A stretch of DNA of 64,000 nt from Patescibacteria group bacterium. Lineage in GTDB: Bacteria > Patescibacteriota > Microgenomatia > UBA12405. The notes under the pieces are model-generated. The model made no database searches, was not told the DNA's origin, and saw only the letters and a program-made list of their open reading frames with translations. Position numbers and translations under genes: made by a program. Shown one piece after another: positions 3,888-35,324 of this stretch (position 1 is its first letter; each line of letters begins with the position of its first letter). The stretch is from positions 50,023-114,022 of the forward strand of contig JBMNON010000001.1 in NCBI GenBank assembly GCA_050943115.1, read 5' to 3'.

Positions 3888-4196
3888 ATGAACATACTCA
3901 TAACCGGCGACAATGTTGATATCACCCCCGAAATTAAAGAATTGGTTGATGAAAAAATTGACACCAAGCTCGACCCCCACCTCGCCCATTTCGCTCCGGA
4001 AATCAAAACTGCTGCCCTTAAAATCAGTCGTCAAACCAAAACAGGAAATTTCGAAGTTAATTTAGATATGATGTTGCCTGGAAAAATGCATGTTTACGCC
4101 AAAGCCGCCAATTCCCGTCTCGATTCAGCTCTTATTGACCTTAGGGAGCAAATAGAACGTCAGATTGAAAAATATAAAGCCGATCTAAGGCGATAA
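3888..4196 (+). CDS. hpf: ribosome hibernation promoting factor (short HPF/RaiA family)
   Basis: MNILITGDNVDITPEIKELVDEKIDTKL...IDLREQIERQIEKYK fits the YfiA/HPF pattern at about 100 aa. Confidence 0.75.
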   Translation: MNILITGDNVDITPEIKELVDEKIDTKLDPHLAHFAPEIKTAALKISRQTKTGNFEVNLDMMLPGKMHVYAKAANSRLDSALIDLREQIERQIEKYKADLRR

Positions 4197-4238
4197 CTGT
4201 AATTGCAATTTGCCCTTGCCTCACCTATAATACAGCCT

Positions 4239-4418
4239 ATGGCTAAAGCAAAAAAGACACCCAGAATATTAATCGCCCTAAACTGTGCTAAATGCGGCGC
4301 CCAAAATTATCTGAGTGAGAAAAATAGAACCAACACTACTGACAAGCTCAAATTCACCAAGTATTGTCGCTGGTGCAAAACCCGTACCGAACATCGGGAA
4401 TCTACCAAGCTCAAGTAA
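4239..4418 (+). CDS. rpmG: 50S ribosomal protein L33 (zinc-ribbon type)
   Basis: MAKAKKTPRILIALNCAKCGAQNYLSEKNRTNTTDKLKFTKYCRWCKTRTEHRE shows the C..C...C..C L33 signature. Start moved to the internal MAK. Confidence 0.8.
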   Translation: MAKAKKTPRILIALNCAKCGAQNYLSEKNRTNTTDKLKFTKYCRWCKTRTEHRESTKLK

Positions 4419-5464
4419 TGGTCCAAACTGAATCGCTTATTTCCGCCCTGGAAAATATCTACATCTCCCCTTTAGAGCAATGTAACTTGAACTGCAAGTA
4501 CTGCTACACTCACAAAACAAAAAATGTCCTTTCTAATAAACAAATATTAAACTTCGTCCGTGTTTATGGATCATTTTTAAAAAGTTACAGCCGCAAATTT
4601 TTGACAATCTCTCAACTCGGCAACGGACTTGACGGAGGCCAAAAATTTTGTGGCAAGACTGAAAATTCCCCTCGCTACAATAAATACATATCAAATTCTT
4701 TCAACACAAGTGCTTTTGACAGTCTTCAACGCCAAAACATTGACCAGCCCCAAAAACACCTCACCCAAAAGAATACATTATCCCTAAAATCCATCCTTTT
4801 TTGCGGCGGAGAAGTATTTCTTCTCCCTGACTTCCCTCCTCTGGTCAACCAACTTATCTCTCAAGGCATTTTTATTACCATCATCACCAACGGCACTATC
4901 GACCGGCTCTCCGAAATTAAAGACCCAACCAATTGTCAGCTATTAGTCTCCCTCGACGGACCCGAAAAAATCCACGATCAAAACCGAGGTTTGGGTAATT
5001 TTCAAAAGAGTAAAATTTTTATTCGTAATGCACTTAAATTAGGCTTTCCAGTGGAAATTATGTATCTCATAAGTTCCGCCTCTTACCCTTACAGAGACTC
5101 GTTTAACCTCTTTGATTTGCCCAAAACTTATCTTACAGACCGCCTTCATTCACTCGCTCCGGACCAAACCCTGAATATCAAAAAAAACTATCCTACCTAC
5201 CCCGCCAAAAACTTCGGTTGCTTTCAGCTGGCTTTGCAATCCGATACTTATATCTACGGTTGTTGCGAATCCTCAAAGTCCCTCGCCCGAATGTCTGATC
5301 CGCCCTCACGGATAATCGACAACTTCATCAATGCCCTCAAACCCTGCTCCCTCTGCTCCAATAAACAATGTCTGGGTTGCGTTGACCCCAGATACCTTTG
5401 TAGTTACAATTCCGAACTTTCCCAACAAAATTGCCAAAATGTTGTAAAATCTTTTACCCAATGA
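4418..5464 (+). CDS. radical SAM protein with SPASM/twitch-like C-terminal Cys cluster
   Basis: CNLNCKYCY (CxxxCxxC) at residue ~22, GGE motif FCGGEVFLL, C-terminal YGCC...CSLCSNKQCLGC. ATG at 4418 overlaps the rpmG stop (TAATG). Confidence 0.7.
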   Translation: MVQTESLISALENIYISPLEQCNLNCKYCYTHKTKNVLSNKQILNFVRVYGSFLKSYSRKFLTISQLGNGLDGGQKFCGKTENSPRYNKYISNSFNTSAFDSLQRQNIDQPQKHLTQKNTLSLKSILFCGGEVFLLPDFPPLVNQLISQGIFITIITNGTIDRLSEIKDPTNCQLLVSLDGPEKIHDQNRGLGNFQKSKIFIRNALKLGFPVEIMYLISSASYPYRDSFNLFDLPKTYLTDRLHSLAPDQTLNIKKNYPTYPAKNFGCFQLALQSDTYIYGCCESSKSLARMSDPPSRIIDNFINALKPCSLCSNKQCLGCVDPRYLCSYNSELSQQNCQNVVKSFTQ

Positions 5465-6483
5465 ATCAAAAATTTCAATCCCAATTTATCAAGGAATGGA
5501 CAATCCAGCTTGCAAGGGATTTTTTCCTGTCCCGGCACTTTCACGAGGTTGAAACTCCTACTCTCATGCCCCGGATTCCCATCGAACCCAATCTCTACCC
5601 GCTCAAAACCACTTGGGTCGAAAGAAAGCTTGATTTCTACCTGGCTACCTCGCCTGAAAGTTCTCTAAAAAAGTTAATCGCGGATGGTCTTGGCAACTGT
5701 TTTGCCATCAGCAAAGTCTTTCGTGATTTAGAAAATATAGGACCTACTCACAATCTGGAATTTTCCATGCTCGAATGGTATGAAATGGGCAAAACCTATC
5801 ATGATATCGCTCTAACTACTCAAAAATTACTAATACATGTTTACAATGGAATCCAAAATATATTAGGAATCTGCAATAACAATATACTCAACTACCAGGA
5901 TAACATAATTGATCTTAGCCCACCTTGGCACGAATATATCATGACTGATCTTTTTAAAAAATATGCGGATATGGATTTAAGCCAAAATTTAACCACCCAA
6001 AAGCTTAAAACCACCGCCCAAAAAAAAGGTTACAACACCGAAGGTGTTGACTCCTGGGAACCACTCTACACTCAAATATTTATTAACGAAATCGAATCCC
6101 GTCTTCCCATGGACAAACCCGTTATTATCTATGATTTTCCAACTCGCCAATCCCCCCTTTGCCAACCCTGTCCCAATTCCACCACCTTCTCTCAACGTTT
6201 TGAGTTTTATATCGGGGGCATGGAAATTGGCAATGCCTACACTGAATTGACAGACGCCAAGACCTTGGAAAAAAACTTTAAAAAAGAGGCTGCCTACCGC
6301 AAAAACCACTCCCTCCCCCTCCACCCTCCCGATGAAAAATTTGTTGAGGCCATTGGCCGTTTACCCCCCTGCGCCGGTATCGGACTGGGCGTCGACCGTC
6401 TAGCCATGCTTCTTGCCAATACATCCAATATCGAGGATGTTCTCTACTTCCCCACCTCCAAACTTATTTCTGACTCTAATTAG
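5461..6483 (+). CDS. epmA: EF-P--(R)-beta-lysine ligase EpmA/GenX-like (class II LysRS catalytic core, no anticodon domain)
   Basis: FHEVETPTL, ATSPESSLKKLIADGLGNCF, HNLEFSMLEWY (motif 2), RFEFYIGGMEIGNAYTELTD, LPLHPPDEKFVEAIGRLPPCAGIGLGVDRLAML (motif 3) align closely with E. coli EpmA. ATG at 5461 overlaps the rSAM stop (ATGA). Confidence 0.75.
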   Translation: MNQKFQSQFIKEWTIQLARDFFLSRHFHEVETPTLMPRIPIEPNLYPLKTTWVERKLDFYLATSPESSLKKLIADGLGNCFAISKVFRDLENIGPTHNLEFSMLEWYEMGKTYHDIALTTQKLLIHVYNGIQNILGICNNNILNYQDNIIDLSPPWHEYIMTDLFKKYADMDLSQNLTTQKLKTTAQKKGYNTEGVDSWEPLYTQIFINEIESRLPMDKPVIIYDFPTRQSPLCQPCPNSTTFSQRFEFYIGGMEIGNAYTELTDAKTLEKNFKKEAAYRKNHSLPLHPPDEKFVEAIGRLPPCAGIGLGVDRLAMLLANTSNIEDVLYFPTSKLISDSN

Positions 6484-17937: not shown

Positions 17938-17966
17938 CTTGACATTATTACACATTTATTATATAA
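17938..17966 (+). promoter_or_regulatory. consensus sigma70-like promoter TTGACA-N17-TATAAT driving GC-rich cassette A
   Basis: TTGACA at 17938-17943, a 17-nt spacer, TATAAT at 17961-17966. Preceded by the recurrent TATCCTATAAC motif. Confidence 0.5.
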
Positions 17967-18290
17967 TATAGGTCATACAATCAAACAATTGATTGTTAGT
18001 ACTTTTTAAAAATAAAAGTAGTTGTCATAGGAGAGACGGGAGGTTGGGTGGCTCCTCTTAAACCCCCTGCTCCCCTTCTCCTTTGGCAATTCACTTGCCA
18101 AAAGTATGGACAAGACCTTTCCGGCACAGCGCTGGAAATCAGCTTTCCATACGGTTCTTTAACAACCTAGTTTCTTTACCCGCAAAACAACACCATATTG
18201 GGCATCTTCAAGGTGCCCGGCATGGTGTTGTTTTTAACATGTGGTTATCGGGCTCGTATCAAACAAACAGTTCGAAAAGGAGAAGCTGTC

Positions 18291-18848
18291 ATGAGAACGT
18301 TCTACTTTCTGCTTGCCGTCGCCTTGGTGTTTATGCCTGTTGGCTGTGGCGCCATCTATGCTGCGGTCGGGGGACGCAGTCTGATCGTCGGTCAACCGGA
18401 GGGATACATCCCACCGGCCGCTGACAGTCCCGCTGCTGATCCGACCCCAGTGCCGCCCACTGCCACCGCCCCCGTGACTCAGACTCTCCAGCGAAACGCG
18501 GAAGGCTACGTCGGTCCCACGACCGCCGAAGTCTCCGCCCTGGTTGGGGTGGATCTGGTTCGAGTGGGGACGGAGCCTTCCGCCTGGACATGGCGAGGGA
18601 AGCCTTCAACGGCAACCATCACCTGTCCGGAGGGCTTCTCATGCACGCTCGACGCCGTCGACGACATCACCGTCGTCGTCGGTGGAGTCAACCAGGAGGT
18701 TCTTGTTTACGCAGGGACCTTCAGATGGCTCGAGGCATACCCGCAAGGGATATGCGGCATCTTCGACTCGGAGCAGGAGTTTGCACTGAAAGAGGGCTAC
18801 CAAGTCCGCTATCAGGAAGCTTCTGGCTACGAGGCAGTCTGCCCATAA
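18291..18848 (+). CDS. GC-rich cassette A: secreted protein with Pro/Ala/Thr-rich linker (PPAADSPAADPTPVPPTATAPVTQT) and C-terminal globular domain
   Basis: ATG at 18291 sits 8 nt after AAAGGAGAAG. The signal peptide is MRTFYFLLAVALVFMPVGCG. The region is about 60% GC against about 40% background. Confidence 0.55.
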   Translation: MRTFYFLLAVALVFMPVGCGAIYAAVGGRSLIVGQPEGYIPPAADSPAADPTPVPPTATAPVTQTLQRNAEGYVGPTTAEVSALVGVDLVRVGTEPSAWTWRGKPSTATITCPEGFSCTLDAVDDITVVVGGVNQEVLVYAGTFRWLEAYPQGICGIFDSEQEFALKEGYQVRYQEASGYEAVCP

Positions 18849-18876
18849 CCACACCCACCCCAACAACACCCCCCGT

Positions 18877-18913
18877 GGGAGAGACCTGACATCGTCGTCA
18901 GATAATCTCTCCC
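18877..18913 (+). terminator. nested stem-loop downstream of cassette A gene (terminator-like, weak U tract)
   Basis: GGGAGAGA...TCTCTCCC with inner CTGAC/GTCAG; followed by tcggggtggggtggaatttt. Confidence 0.4.
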
Positions 18914-18946
18914 TCGGGGTGGGGTGGAATTTTGGGTAAGAAACTA

Positions 18947-19005
18947 GGTATGCGTCCTCTGATGAGTATCAGAGCTGATGAGTCCAAAAGGACGAAACGC
19001 AGACC
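18947..19005 (+). ncRNA. hammerhead ribozyme, type III topology
   Basis: GGUAUGCGUC^CUCUGA-UGAGUA-UCAGAG-CUGAUGA-GUCC-AAAA-GGAC-GAAA-CGCAGACC. It carries the GUC cleavage triplet (cut after C18956), closed stem I hairpin, CUGAUGA, 4-bp stem II with AAAA loop, GAAA, and open stem III (GCGU/ACGC plus extension). Confidence 0.75.
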
Positions 19006-19044
19006 ATTAAAACTTAAGCCCGATTATTCGGGCTTTCTTTGTAA

Positions 19045-19833
19045 ATGACTACAATTGACCTAATCATCCCCGTCTTCAACGAAGAAAAGCGTCTTCAAAA
19101 AACCTTTGAGGCTCTAAATTCTTTTGCCCCTCAAAAAGGCTTGAAAGTCCAAAAAGTCATTTTTATTAATGACGGTTCTGCCGACTCTACTCTAAAACTT
19201 ATCAAAACCACCAAAATTAAATTCAAAAAACATGTTATTTCCTATTCTCAAAACCAAGGTAAAGGTTATGCTGTTAAACAGGGCTTACTTGCTGCCCGAT
19301 CTGACTACGCCCTCTTTTTTGATGCCGATATGTCTACTCCTCTTACTGAAATTAAGAAATTCCTGCCTTATACCAAAAAAGGATGCCCAATCATAATTGG
19401 TACCCGCAAAAACGGCCACTCCACTGTTATTGTTCATCAACCCTTTGTCAGGGAACATTTGGGCCGTATTTTCACTAGACTCTCCCAAATAATCCTGGGC
19501 ACTTCAGTAACCGATTTTACTTGTGGCTTTAAAGCTTTTTCCAAAGAAGCCTACTCCGTAATCGCCCCCCTAATGCAAATAAACCGTTGGGGTTACGACA
19601 GCGAAATCATTTTTATTGCCCAAAAACACCAGCTTCCTATTCAGGAAAAATCAGTTACCTGGTCTGACGAGCCCAACACCAAGGTCAAATTACTAAAAGA
19701 CGGTTTCCGTTCTCTTAACGAACTTTTTCAAATTCGTTTAAACTATTTGAAAGGTAACTATGACCAAACAAACACAAAAAAAACTTGTCACTTCCCCTAT
19801 AACCGCACTCTTCCTACTGAAACTACATCTTAA
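19045..19833 (+). CDS. GT2 polyprenyl-phosphate sugar synthase-like glycosyltransferase (DPM1/GtrB/Ppm1-like)
   Basis: DLIIPVFNEEKRL, VIFINDGSADST, QGKGYAVKQG, FFDADMSTP (DxD) are the GT2 motifs in the expected order. Confidence 0.7.
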   Translation: MTTIDLIIPVFNEEKRLQKTFEALNSFAPQKGLKVQKVIFINDGSADSTLKLIKTTKIKFKKHVISYSQNQGKGYAVKQGLLAARSDYALFFDADMSTPLTEIKKFLPYTKKGCPIIIGTRKNGHSTVIVHQPFVREHLGRIFTRLSQIILGTSVTDFTCGFKAFSKEAYSVIAPLMQINRWGYDSEIIFIAQKHQLPIQEKSVTWSDEPNTKVKLLKDGFRSLNELFQIRLNYLKGNYDQTNTKKTCHFPYNRTLPTETTS

Positions 19834-21161: not shown

Positions 21162-21269
21162 TTGTAAACTATACGCATTTATTATATAATTCCCCTGTTC
21201 ATAAGAATCTTTAAAAATATTGCATTTTTATAGGATTTTTATGATGCTCTTTGACAGACTGCTAGGATT

Positions 21270-21320
21270 TGTGACGCAATTATTTAAGCCTATATAATAG
21301 GCTTGGCTATTTGCGTCACA
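21270..21320 (+). promoter_or_regulatory. promoter TGTGAC-N17-TATAAT embedded in nested perfect palindromes (candidate operator) for cassette B
   Basis: Outer inverted repeat TGTGACGCAA (21270-79) / TTGCGTCACA (21311-20). The inner palindrome AAGCCTAT-ATA-ATAGGCTT (21286-21304) is centred on the TATAAT -10 box. Confidence 0.45.
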
Positions 21321-21362
21321 AAAGGTGATGCATATTGTGCATAGAACAAAGGAGAAACTCAG

Positions 21363-22013
21363 ATGAAGTGGCAAGTTCTTTTAGGTCTTTTCGTTCTGGT
21401 CGTGATGGTCAGCTTCCCGGCTCTTGCCGAAGAGACAAAGACCATCTCCGTCTCAGGAAACACTGCCTGTTTAGCCTTCGTCGCCAACTACGACGGAGCA
21501 GCAACAGTCCATGTGTTGTGGGGCATCCCGGGCACTCCTCGTGAAGATCTTGTCTTCACCGAGCGGACTGTCCTGGTTGTCCCCCCGGAAGGCGCAAATA
21601 CCTTCTGGTTTGGAGGAAGCGAGGAGTTTGTGGTGGCAACTGATCTAACTCCGCTGGGAGAAGATTGGTATGCTATACCTCAAGTCCTGCAACCGACACC
21701 AGAACCGACTCCGCAACCGACTCCTGCACCGACATTCGATGTTTTCCTCCCCCTTGTCTTCTCGCCCCCCAGCACCATTACCATCGAACGTGATGGTAAC
21801 AATCTGGTCTTACGGGCCTCTAGGCAACCAAGTACCGACCTCTATCTCCTCTGGGGAGTGGAAAACACACCTCGACATAACCTGGTTTTCATCAATCAGG
21901 TCGCTACCACACCGATTCCCCAAGGGGCACAAACCTTCTGGTTTGCCGCACCCAACTTCAGGGTAAATACCAACTTTCAGGACCTCGGTTCTGATTGGTA
22001 CCAAATCCCCTGA
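21363..22013 (+). CDS. GC-rich cassette B: secreted two-domain protein (internal duplication) joined by PTPEPTPQPTPAPT linker
   Basis: AAAGGAGAAACTCAG-ATG RBS; signal peptide MKWQVLLGLFVLVVMVSFPALA. Two homologous ~60-aa modules (VLWGIPGTPREDLVF...FWFGGSEEF...DWYAIP and LLWGVENTPRHNLVF...FWFAAPNF...DWYQIP). Confidence 0.6.
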   Translation: MKWQVLLGLFVLVVMVSFPALAEETKTISVSGNTACLAFVANYDGAATVHVLWGIPGTPREDLVFTERTVLVVPPEGANTFWFGGSEEFVVATDLTPLGEDWYAIPQVLQPTPEPTPQPTPAPTFDVFLPLVFSPPSTITIERDGNNLVLRASRQPSTDLYLLWGVENTPRHNLVFINQVATTPIPQGAQTFWFAAPNFRVNTNFQDLGSDWYQIP

Positions 22014-22025
22014 TTTCCATGCCAA

Positions 22026-22058
22026 GCAGGGCGGCTGCCTCCAGGCTCGCCGCCCTGC
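22026..22058 (+). terminator. GC-rich 10-bp perfect stem-loop after cassette B gene
   Basis: GCAGGGCGGC-tgcctccaggctc-GCCGCCCTGC; no clean U tract. Confidence 0.45.
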
Positions 22059-22133
22059 CTCGGCCTCTCCTCCCCCGCACCACCCACTAGCAGTCTGTTT
22101 ATAATAAAGTAAGGAATTTATTTATCCTGCCTC

Positions 22134-34753: not shown

Positions 34754-34832
34754 TTTTGCTCGAAAGTTTTACGTGGGTCGGGCTTTAACCGTAGCGGCAC
34801 TGCTCAGGAATTTCACCTGCTTCCAATATAAT

Positions 34833-35324
34833 TTACTGTTCTTCCGACTTTCTCCCCAACATAAATAAATAATCCGACAATCTATTAAAATAAGTCAAAA
34901 CATCTTCCCGTACTTCTCTGTTCCTGCTGAATCTTACCAGCCGCCTTTCTACCCTCCTTGCTACTGTCCTCGCCCAATTAAGTAATGCCCCCAATCTACA
35001 CTCAAAACCGATAAACTTCCTAATCGGAACTGTTTCTTTCTCCATCTTCTCAATCGCCTCTTCCAGCTGAATTATCCTGCAACCACAATCCCTGTATTTA
35101 ATGCCACAGCTTAATTCACCCATAATTCCCCACAAATCATCCTCAATGTCTTTAATGCCAGCCTTCACCTCCTTATTCTTCTCTGCCTCCAATCTCACCA
35201 GCCCCATAACTGCCTTTAGCTCATCCGCCACCCCTATTGCTTCCAACAAATCCCCATCCTTGTCCTCCTCTCTCCCCATCCAATAGCTCTTTCCTTTATC
35301 CCCTATTTTTGTCATTATGTCCAT
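34833..35324 (-). CDS. PduO-type ATP:cob(I)alamin adenosyltransferase
   Basis: MTKIGDKGKSYWMGREEDKDGDLLEAIGVADELKAVMG matches TKTGDxGxT...EA.GtvDEL of PduO/MMAB ATR. Confidence 0.65.
   Translation of the reverse strand: MDIMTKIGDKGKSYWMGREEDKDGDLLEAIGVADELKAVMGLVRLEAEKNKEVKAGIKDIEDDLWGIMGELSCGIKYRDCGCRIIQLEEAIEKMEKETVPIRKFIGFECRLGALLNWARTVARRVERRLVRFSRNREVREDVLTYFNRLSDYLFMLGRKSEEQ

Follow-up and report, generated by a model that had tools for sequence, protein, structure and literature searches.

A 64,000-nt stretch of contig JBMNON010000001.1 from a Patescibacteria group bacterium (hereafter the window) was found to carry, at positions 18947–19005 of the + strand, an element that by its sequence is a genuine type III hammerhead ribozyme, with a match well beyond chance and with cleavage predicted after C18956. 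The element lies between a GC-rich gene coding for a 185-aa protein, here called cassette A, and the gene of a GT2 glycosyltransferase (GT2). It is probably a maintained ribozyme, which would cut the cassette A–GT2 co-transcript after C18956 and uncouple both messages. A role in separating the messages is suggested because the junction is conserved with compensatory changes in the stems, no promoter-like site is found between the two genes in the window, and a promoter is present at the same junction in a lineage devoid of the ribozyme.

A complete type III hammerhead had been proposed in a preliminary description of this DNA, made from the sequence alone, and every core element was found where it had been placed and in the right order. 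The parts of the element are the following:

18947..19005, + strand: complete type III hammerhead ribozyme (end-to-end match to RF00008 and minimum free energy (MFE) fold)
18947..18955, + strand: stem III 5′ strand GGUAUGCGU (positions 16.9–16.1), pairing with 18997–19005
18954–18956, + strand: cleavage triplet GUC, with the predicted scissile bond after C18956
18956, + strand: cleavage-site nucleotide C17, with the predicted cut between 18956 and 18957
18957..18974, + strand: stem I hairpin CUCUGAU-GAGU-AUCAGAG, 7 bp (18957–18963 with 18968–18974) and 4-nt loop GAGU
18975..18981, + strand: catalytic core C3–A9, CUGAUGA, read from the sequence and unvarying in orthologous copies
18982..18993, + strand: stem II hairpin GUCC-AAAA-GGAC, read from the sequence, 4 bp, a stem that covaries in non-selected copies and in orthologs
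18994–18996, + strand: core GAA (G12-A13-A14), read from the sequence and aligned to the RF00008 model core
18997–19005, + strand: stem III 3′ strand ACGCAGACC, that is, A15.1-CGCAGACC, read from the sequence

In reading order, 18947–19005 is GGUAUGCGUC / CUCUGAU-GAGU-AUCAGAG / CUGAUGA / GUCC-AAAA-GGAC / GAA / ACGCAGACC. All core nucleotides (C3, U4, G5, A6, N7, G8 and A9, together with G12, A13 and A14) are present and canonical, the A15.1–U16.1 pair is intact (A18997–U18955), and N17 is C18956, non-G as the NUH rule demands. Stem III comprises 8 pairs and one A–G mismatch (A18950/G19002) in its outer part. The stem I hairpin described earlier was present, but with 7 bp instead of the 6 that had been counted.

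The alignment with the Rfam model RF00008 (Hammerhead_3) in E-value mode was end-to-end (model positions 1–54) and scored 42.5 bits, with E = 2.7e-8 locally and E = 6.9e-6 for the 64-kb window, in which it was the fourth-best RNA match. The family model R1, whose seed included the window sequence, scored the element 71.8 bits, and a descriptor scan, RF00008 and R1 agreed on exactly one hammerhead in the window. The window derives from a 77.8-kb Logan contig (SRR31061296). Moreover, a 5.6-kb sister-strain contig from a different sample (ERR10905742) carried an identical ribozyme, with 4 differences over 1.2 kb of the region, indicating that the element is not an assembly artefact and that the arrangement is real.

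For the 59-nt element, the MFE structure (–20.1 kcal/mol, z = –3.4) and the centroid both coincide with the hammerhead fold, with three helices around the core, of which stems I and II are loop-closed and stem III is open. The preliminary description had pointed out a second CUGAUGAG copy embedded in stem I, which is indeed present at 18959–18966, and had feared an alternative, inactive fold. This concern was not borne out, as the hammerhead was again the MFE and the centroid within 215 nt of native context (18846–19060). A hammerhead built on the first CUGAUGA (18959–18965) was also considered and ruled out in the descriptor scan, since no stem II of at least 3 bp could be formed.

A hammerhead family centred on Patescibacteria

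At least 119 stretches drawn from GTDB representative genomes contain the exact 24-mer core CTGATGAGTCCAAAAGGACGAAAC, and nearly all of them belong to the ultra-small Patescibacteria. The family counts given here (130 distinct copies and a 125-sequence alignment) were drawn from among the 24-mer matches listed, which included Saccharibacteria, Paceibacterota and Kaiser-, Falkow-, Vogel-, Berkel- and Shapirobacteria. All but one of the 130 distinct copies (129) could be parsed as hammerheads, in which N17 was C in 94, U in 24, A in 11 and G in none. Stem I presented 83 distinct sequences, all of 6–8 bp and usually with a GUGU-type loop; the GAGU loop of the window was common to 5 other copies. 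In the alignment, 98.9% of stem I was paired and 6 of its 7 pairs showed double, compensatory changes; the inner four pairs of stem III covaried. The observed level of covariation was reached in 0 of 500 shuffles, and slid registers were 32–44% paired, against 87% for the true one.

The 24-mer search pattern fixed stem II, whose variation was judged only from copies found independently. An independent descriptor applied to the same loci recovered 164 hammerheads in 1.15 Mb of fetched sequence, against 0 in block-shuffled controls, and its extra copies presented the stem II variants GCUC/GAGC, GUCU, GGCU and GAGC with NAAA loops. Covariation in related genomes, which had been proposed earlier as a check, was found for stems I and II and for the inner part of stem III. 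The window element shares with RF00008 the CUGAUGA...GAA core, the A15.1–U16.1 pair, the GUC cleavage triplet and the arrangement of the helices, of which I and II are closed and III is open; it differs by a fixed 4-bp stem II with NAAA loop and by a 7-bp stem I with the conserved GAU-GNGU-AUC tip. The embedded CUGAUGAG copy in the window merely mirrors this conserved stem I tip.

Fast cleavage by hammerheads at physiological Mg2+ needs a tertiary contact between stem/loop I and stem/loop II. The minimal stem II loop had been taken to offer little of such contact, a view that became doubtful: in the 125 aligned copies U1.7 at the stem I tip was invariant and the first loop I base was a conserved G (≥90%), and loop II was NAAA even in copies for which the search pattern did not select. 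The conservation of these positions would fit a loop I–loop II tertiary contact under selection.

By a crude call of open reading frames (ORFs), ~80% of the family copies were intergenic. The flanking genes were mostly co-directional with the ribozyme (upstream 69 copies versus 27, downstream 63 versus 27), the commonest setting being between two co-directional genes (42 copies); 18 copies preceded convergent genes, 13 followed divergent genes and 9 were placed between two opposite-strand genes. The downstream genes were diverse and mostly devoid of Pfam domains, which ruled out a tie of the ribozyme to one gene family. The 40 nt upstream of the copies formed a stable hairpin (mean MFE –10.3 kcal/mol, mean z = –2.6), which ended 0–2 nt before stem III in ~87% of the copies having one, whereas the 40 nt downstream were unstructured (z = –0.2). 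A GC-rich upstream gene was considered as a family-wide rule and rejected, since only a modest trend was seen (median +4% GC upstream versus 0% downstream); the strong GC effect on the upstream gene is specific to the GT2 junction.

Near-identical tandem copies were found in the loci L097, L137 and L127. In a pattern search of viral contigs, mostly other hammerhead types, weak on R1, were recovered, and only L025 and L014 carried the family. The predicted viral contig L025 (IMG/VR UViG_3300008262_000065) harbours at 3946–6200 at least 4 strong copies (57–64 bits), spaced 400–1100 nt apart and flanking small genes; one of them has a CUGACGA core and another an AAGA loop II.

A U-rich motif resembling GUUCUUU(G/A)AAA was enriched directly 3′ of stem III at family loci (L032–L150), with TTCTTT in 25 and GTTCTT in 22 of ~129 copies. 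In the window, cUUUCUUUGUAAA follows the extra hairpin located downstream of the ribozyme, CTTTCTTTGTAAA stands immediately before the GT2 ATG (19034–19044), and GGTTCTTTAACAA is found inside the cassette A leader (18154–18166). Possible roles of this motif are those of a U-tract, of a site for a nuclease or of one for ribosome loading.

No account of hammerheads in Candidate Phyla Radiation (CPR) bacteria was found in the searchable literature, subscription-only papers being outside its coverage, and this large Patescibacteria-centred family with its stereotyped upstream hairpin is apparently undescribed.

The GT2 junction and its genes

The transcription unit that contains the ribozyme presents these features:

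17939..17967, + strand: 12/12 consensus promoter TTGACA-17-TATAAT, likely start of the cassette A–hammerhead–GT2 transcript
18291..18848, + strand: cassette A, 185-aa protein (ORF and translation)
18855..18927, + strand: strong GC-rich hairpin in the 3′ untranslated region of cassette A, with no U-tract (fold of 18846–19060)
19016..19041, + strand: hairpin AAGCCCGAUUAUUCGGGCUU (19016–19035 in the context fold) and U-rich tail, a terminator-like call between the ribozyme and the GT2 AUG
19045..19833, + strand: GT2 glycosyltransferase, polyprenyl-phosphate sugar synthase-like (Pfam PF00535), with no Shine-Dalgarno (SD) sequence and no promoter of its own

The distances reported earlier held, with the cassette A stop codon ending at 18848 (98 nt upstream of the ribozyme) and the GT2 ATG at 19045 (39 nt downstream). 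The placement between two co-directional cistrons was likewise confirmed, with no promoter-like site between them: the scan of the window found none on the + strand from the end of the promoter at 17967 to a weak site at 19445, within GT2. An own or leaderless GT2 promoter within 18970–19044 was thus ruled out, as no promoter-like site was found there. GT2 showed similarities to the NCBIfam families PgfS, AglJ and PpgS, all below their cut-offs, and its homologs point to Shapirobacteria/Microgenomates within the CPR.

The same gene order was recognised in relatives, in which a GalU-like NTP-transferase, small hypothetical proteins, a 185–235-aa protein, GT2, GT1 and a ~670–925-aa protein are encoded in succession. 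The GalU-like, GT2 and GT1 neighbours of the ribozyme, with their conserved synteny, make up an envelope glycosylation cluster. In at least six other Microgenomates lineages the orthologous GT2 is directly preceded by a hammerhead: L151 (where it is identical to that of the window), L152, L155/L156, L157, L119 and L121. The cores of these copies are identical and all three stems differ, yet still pair:

L155/L156: 58.8 bits; stem I UGCCGAU/AUCGGCA; stem II GUCC/GGAC unchanged, with loop AAUA; stem III GUGUGU/ACACAC; N17 = A
L152: 25.8 bits; stem I GUCC/GGAC; stem II GUUCCGA/UCGGAAC; stem III AGCGU/ACGCU
L157: 29.9 bits; stem I UUCCGC/GCGGAA; stem II GACCU/AGGUC; stem III GGUGU/ACACU
L119: exact-core copy; stem I UACCGAU/AUCGGUA; stem II GUCC/GGAC; stem III AGCGU/ACGCU; N17 = U
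L121: exact-core copy; stem I UAUCGAU/GUCGAUA; stem II GUCC/GGAC; stem III UCCAGU/ACUGGA

The GT2 proteins of the sampled orthologs (L152, L155/L156 and L157) are 62–68% identical to that of the window. The retention of the ribozyme at this orthologous junction with compensatory changes indicates a long vertical maintenance under selection. In five ortholog lineages, the distance from stem III to the GT2 start codon is 0–16 nt, against 39 nt in the window, where the longer spacing is due to the hairpin inserted between the ribozyme and the GT2 AUG; an SD sequence is present in none of them. This hairpin (19016–19041) was not found in the orthologs and is lineage-specific; judging from its predicted fold, it may act as an attenuator or as a 5′ stabiliser.

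The locus L153 (~4892–4950), together with L154, carries a hammerhead-like element that keeps CUGAUGA intact and has 7 bp in stem II and 6 bp in stem III, but in which the triplet is AAC and the normally invariant A15.1–U16.1 pair is flipped to U15.1–A16.1 (GAAU). By its sequence this variant is probably impaired and poorly active, and it represents a ribozyme in decay or else a natural variant of the core. At the GT2 junctions of L158, L159 and L160 no hammerhead was found with search filters off. In L159, an 11/12 TG-extended promoter ends 10 nt before the GT2 ATG, and a hairpin followed by a T-run was seen by eye after the upstream gene, where the scanner called no terminator; in L160, the junction has a weak 9/12 promoter-like site. 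Ribozyme and promoter can therefore alternate at the GT2 junction, the promoter being clear in one ribozyme-less relative (L159). Two genes downstream of GT2, the Collierbacteria-like L159 also carries (5189–5869) a Y1 transposase of the IS200/IS605 type (PF01797).

In the cassette A protein, a signal/lipoprotein-like N-terminus is joined by a linker rich in Pro, Ala and Thr to a C-terminal domain that contains Cys; its gene is 61% GC with a third-position GC content (GC3) of 0.67 in a 43% GC window. This composition had led to the view of a foreign gene next to a native GT2. A word-indexed homology search recovered only the sister-strain copy, as if cassette A were an orphan, a possibility discarded when the synteny-guided comparison found clear homologs: its C-terminal domain is 50% identical to the L160 protein at the syntenic position (E = 3e-33), and it shows weak similarity to the proteins of L155 and L153, between which identity is 56%. 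The proteins in this slot are alike in their N-terminal signal/anchor, Pro/Ala/Thr-rich linker and Cys-containing domain, with no Pfam match. Moreover, the syntenic upstream gene is GC-rich in the relatives except L158, where a different kind of protein is encoded with 49% GC in a 48% GC locus:

L155 (4415–4972): upstream gene 55% GC, locus 37%
L152 (4129–4803): upstream gene 65% GC, locus 45%
L153 (4186–4782): upstream gene 58% GC, locus 39%
L157: upstream gene 47% GC, locus 35%
L159 (2691–3398): upstream gene 58% GC, locus 44%
L160 (2639–3256): upstream gene 51% GC, locus 36%
L119 (~1782–2366): upstream gene 61% GC, locus 42%

In most lineages (genomes of 34–45% GC), the GC3 of the upstream gene was 0.54–0.77, versus 0.28–0.51 for GT2. 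The homology with the syntenic gene of relatives indicates that cassette A was vertically inherited and is not an inserted cassette; by sequence comparison, it is a fast-evolving native gene with a persistent compositional anomaly, and the ribozyme belongs to the conserved junction instead of to an insertion. The misreading of the GC-rich neighbour as an import is thereby corrected to a conserved, compositionally odd native gene. That the upstream protein might be a substrate of glycosylation is speculation.

Relatives have analogous GC-rich hairpins after the upstream gene, with a CTGACAT loop motif shared by L152, and the modelled hairpin at 18855–18927 probably protects the 3′ end of the upstream product of cleavage. 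A GGAG/GAGG SD sequence precedes only 7 of the 50 long ORFs of the window, the other 43 being SD-less, and many start codons stand 6–12 nt after a TATAAT-like box. The scarcity of SD sequences and the proximity of start codons to such boxes suggest widespread leaderless or SD-independent translation. Unlike most genes of the window, cassette A and a second GC-rich gene, cassette B, carry strong SD sequences.

The ~315-nt leader of cassette A (17975–18290, + strand) is strongly structured (MFE –121.6 kcal/mol, z = –7.8), and a long hairpin followed by UUUUU was seen by eye at ~18186–18237, resembling an attenuator or a riboswitch terminator. No family matched this leader in the Rfam scans of the window. 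The sister strain retains it, apart from 3 minor changes.

Proposed role, competing explanations and known systems

In the proposed mechanism, transcription would begin at the consensus promoter (17939–17967) and cross the GC-rich surface-protein gene (18291–18848), its 3′ hairpin lacking a U-tract, the ribozyme and the GT2–GT1 genes. The hammerhead would fold co-transcriptionally and cut after C18956, leaving an upstream message whose 3′ end is a stable hairpin followed by a short tail with a 2′,3′-cyclic phosphate, and a downstream message with a 5′-OH, the compact ribozyme body, one extra hairpin and the SD-less GT2 start codon. As had been anticipated in the preliminary description, the GT2 message would in the event of a cut retain the ribozyme body at its 5′ end. 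A structural protein, probably an abundant one, would thus have its stability and expression uncoupled from those of the downstream enzymes, and the ribozyme would do what a terminator and a promoter would otherwise do. We infer the cut itself, the shared transcript and the way in which GT2 expression would shift. On a broader scale, a hairpin followed by a type III hammerhead may, as a tentative generalisation, constitute a standard module of Patescibacteria and their phages, held in very numerous copies, that cuts operon transcripts, sets messenger ends and is evolutionarily interchangeable with a terminator–promoter pair. If so, a self-cleaving ribozyme would have a clade-wide housekeeping role in bacterial genes that are cellular and not of phages, and this in a group with mostly SD-less or leaderless messages.

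Several points weigh against a maintained ribozyme that separates the two messages. The gathering-threshold Rfam scan of the window reported no hammerhead, since the 42.5 bits fall below the gathering score of 48.5, which the preliminary description had taken as grounds for refutation. That criterion is judged too strict because the family straddles the cut-off, with some sibling copies above it (48.8–52.9 bits), and because the covariation is decisive; the gathering threshold is a curation cut-off and no biochemical criterion. The L153 variant indicates that the element can decay. The hairpin at 19016–19041 with its U-rich tail looks like an intrinsic terminator and, if efficient, would leave little GT2 message. 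The 18 copies before convergent genes and the 9 between opposite-strand genes suggest that one role may not fit all. The effect of a 5′-OH depends on the organism, and the outcome of cleavage could be a lower expression of GT2 and not its insulation. Finally, no published data on the cleavage of any member of the CPR family were found.

The best-surviving alternative, which we nevertheless regard as rather unlikely, is that the main task of the ribozyme is to mature the upstream message at its 3′ end and to protect it there. Transcripts would stop at 19016–19041 and be trimmed to the GC-rich hairpin, the 2′,3′-cyclic phosphate blocking 3′ exonucleases; the ~85-nt ribozyme–terminator piece would be a by-product, and GT2 would need rare read-through. 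The strong hairpin ending just before stem III across the family fits this proposal, as do the 18 intergenic copies that precede a convergent gene and so have no downstream cistron to serve, and the terminator-like hairpin after the ribozyme, which was also seen by eye in a few other loci, e.g. L129 and L138. However, the window hairpin is lineage-specific, and with the GT2 AUG only 0–16 nt after stem III in five ortholog lineages and no terminator or promoter between, the orthologous GT2 must be translated from cleaved or read-through RNA. Maturation of the 3′ end is compatible with the separation of messages, and the two are not exclusive.

A glmS-like down-regulation is less probable still. 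By this account, an RNase J-type enzyme would degrade the 5′-OH product and hold GT2 and GT1 at levels below that of the surface protein, perhaps depending on conditions. In Bacillus subtilis, the 5′-OH product of the glmS ribozyme is degraded by RNase J1, and the window element occupies the same 5′-leader position ahead of genes without SD sequences. Nevertheless, SD-less starts are the norm here (43 of 50 genes), a minimal ~58-nt hammerhead has no space for a ligand-binding domain, and the same module stands ahead of very diverse genes.

It is very improbable that the element is a selfish or mobile hairpin–hammerhead module, or a phage-derived cassette, that spreads in CPR bacteria and their phages with no site-specific host function. 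The high number of copies within a lineage, the presence of several at one locus, the tandem near-identical copies, the viral contig L025 and a 24-nt core conserved across phyla would agree with such spread, but the ribozyme is kept at one orthologous junction with compensatory stem changes while GT2 has diverged to 62–68% identity, the upstream gene is vertically inherited, and the single window copy offers no flanking pair for excision or circularisation. A chance match or an inactive relic is scarcely tenable, for against the sub-threshold Rfam score, the outer stem III mismatch and the probably crippled L153 version stand an E-value of 6.9e-6, 0 descriptor matches in shuffled controls, an entirely canonical core, the identical sister-strain copy, and family-wide covariation with orthologous conservation.

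The sTRSV ribozyme and the RiboJ insulator are type III hammerheads with GUC cleavage and a GUCC/GGAC stem II, like the window element. As is predicted for the window element, their ribozyme body stays 5′ on the downstream message and a hairpin follows it before the start codon, and the upstream context is removed. They differ from the window element in loop II (GUGA versus AAAA) and in stem I, which has an internal loop instead of a closed tetraloop hairpin, and RiboJ is engineered; to our knowledge, there is no sequence identity beyond the core. The present family suggests compact natural insulator parts.

Clustered hammerheads of bacteria and prophages were described by Perreault et al. 2011 as intergenic, co-oriented and often several per locus, with variable neighbours; they were proposed to cut long transcripts into gene-length messages, and some cleave polycistronic RNA in vitro and in vivo (PMC3088659). 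The window ribozyme is likewise intergenic and on the same strand as its flanking genes. In contrast to those mostly prophage clusters, it is a single copy with no mobile neighbourhood at a conserved chromosomal junction, kept across divergent Microgenomates, and its family is concentrated in Patescibacteria. In the haloviruses HF1/HF2, the HHphage hammerhead precedes the first ORF, with 13 nt between it and the start codon, and the mapped 5′ end coincides with the cleavage site (PMC3088659). There too a hammerhead stands a few nt before a start codon in a polycistronic transcript (in the window, by presumed co-transcription), but HHphage is from an archaeal virus, has salt-dependent core insertions, whereas the window element has a canonical core and a bacterial host.

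The self-cleavage of glmS in a 5′ leader yields a 5′-OH message whose fate controls expression by negative feedback (PMC6765202). The glmS ribozyme has another fold and depends on GlcN6P, whereas no ligand-binding element is evident in the window element, and Rfam gave no glmS match in the window. Hammerheads are widespread among bacteria, but according to a 2019 review their purpose is still undefined (PMC6765202). The type III hammerhead kind and a transcript-processing role, as proposed for bacterial hammerheads, are thus already known; what look new are the Patescibacteria-centred family, its retention in a chromosomal envelope-glycosylation cluster and the alternation of ribozyme and promoter. 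The GT2 junction represents a natural experiment, with the hammerhead in seven lineages (plus the decayed L153 variant) and none in three, one of which has a promoter. For metatranscriptomes, 5′-OH ends at defined positions and steps of coverage between cistrons are predicted.

Other features of the window

Cassette B (21363–22013, + strand) is 53% GC and codes for a secreted protein of 216 aa, in which a PTPEPTPQPTPAPT linker joins two internal repeats. Promoter-like sites precede it at 21162–21190 and 21269–21298, and the perfect inverted repeat TGTGACGCAA...TTGCGTCACA surrounds its second –10 box in an operator-like manner. No gene occupies this position in the relatives examined, where an 844–884-aa protein directly follows GT1, and no hammerhead was found at cassette B (21162–22100). 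Searches of Pfam and NCBIfam gave no match for cassette A, cassette B or an 897-aa membrane protein.

On the – strand, a sub-threshold match to the AdoCbl-II cobalamin riboswitch was found at 34766–34836 (29.2 bits versus a gathering score of 36.5, E = 0.011). Finally, the GC skew of the + strand between 14000 and 24000 was persistently and strongly negative (~–0.2 to –0.57) across genes on both strands, and moved closer to zero only in the two GC-rich genes.

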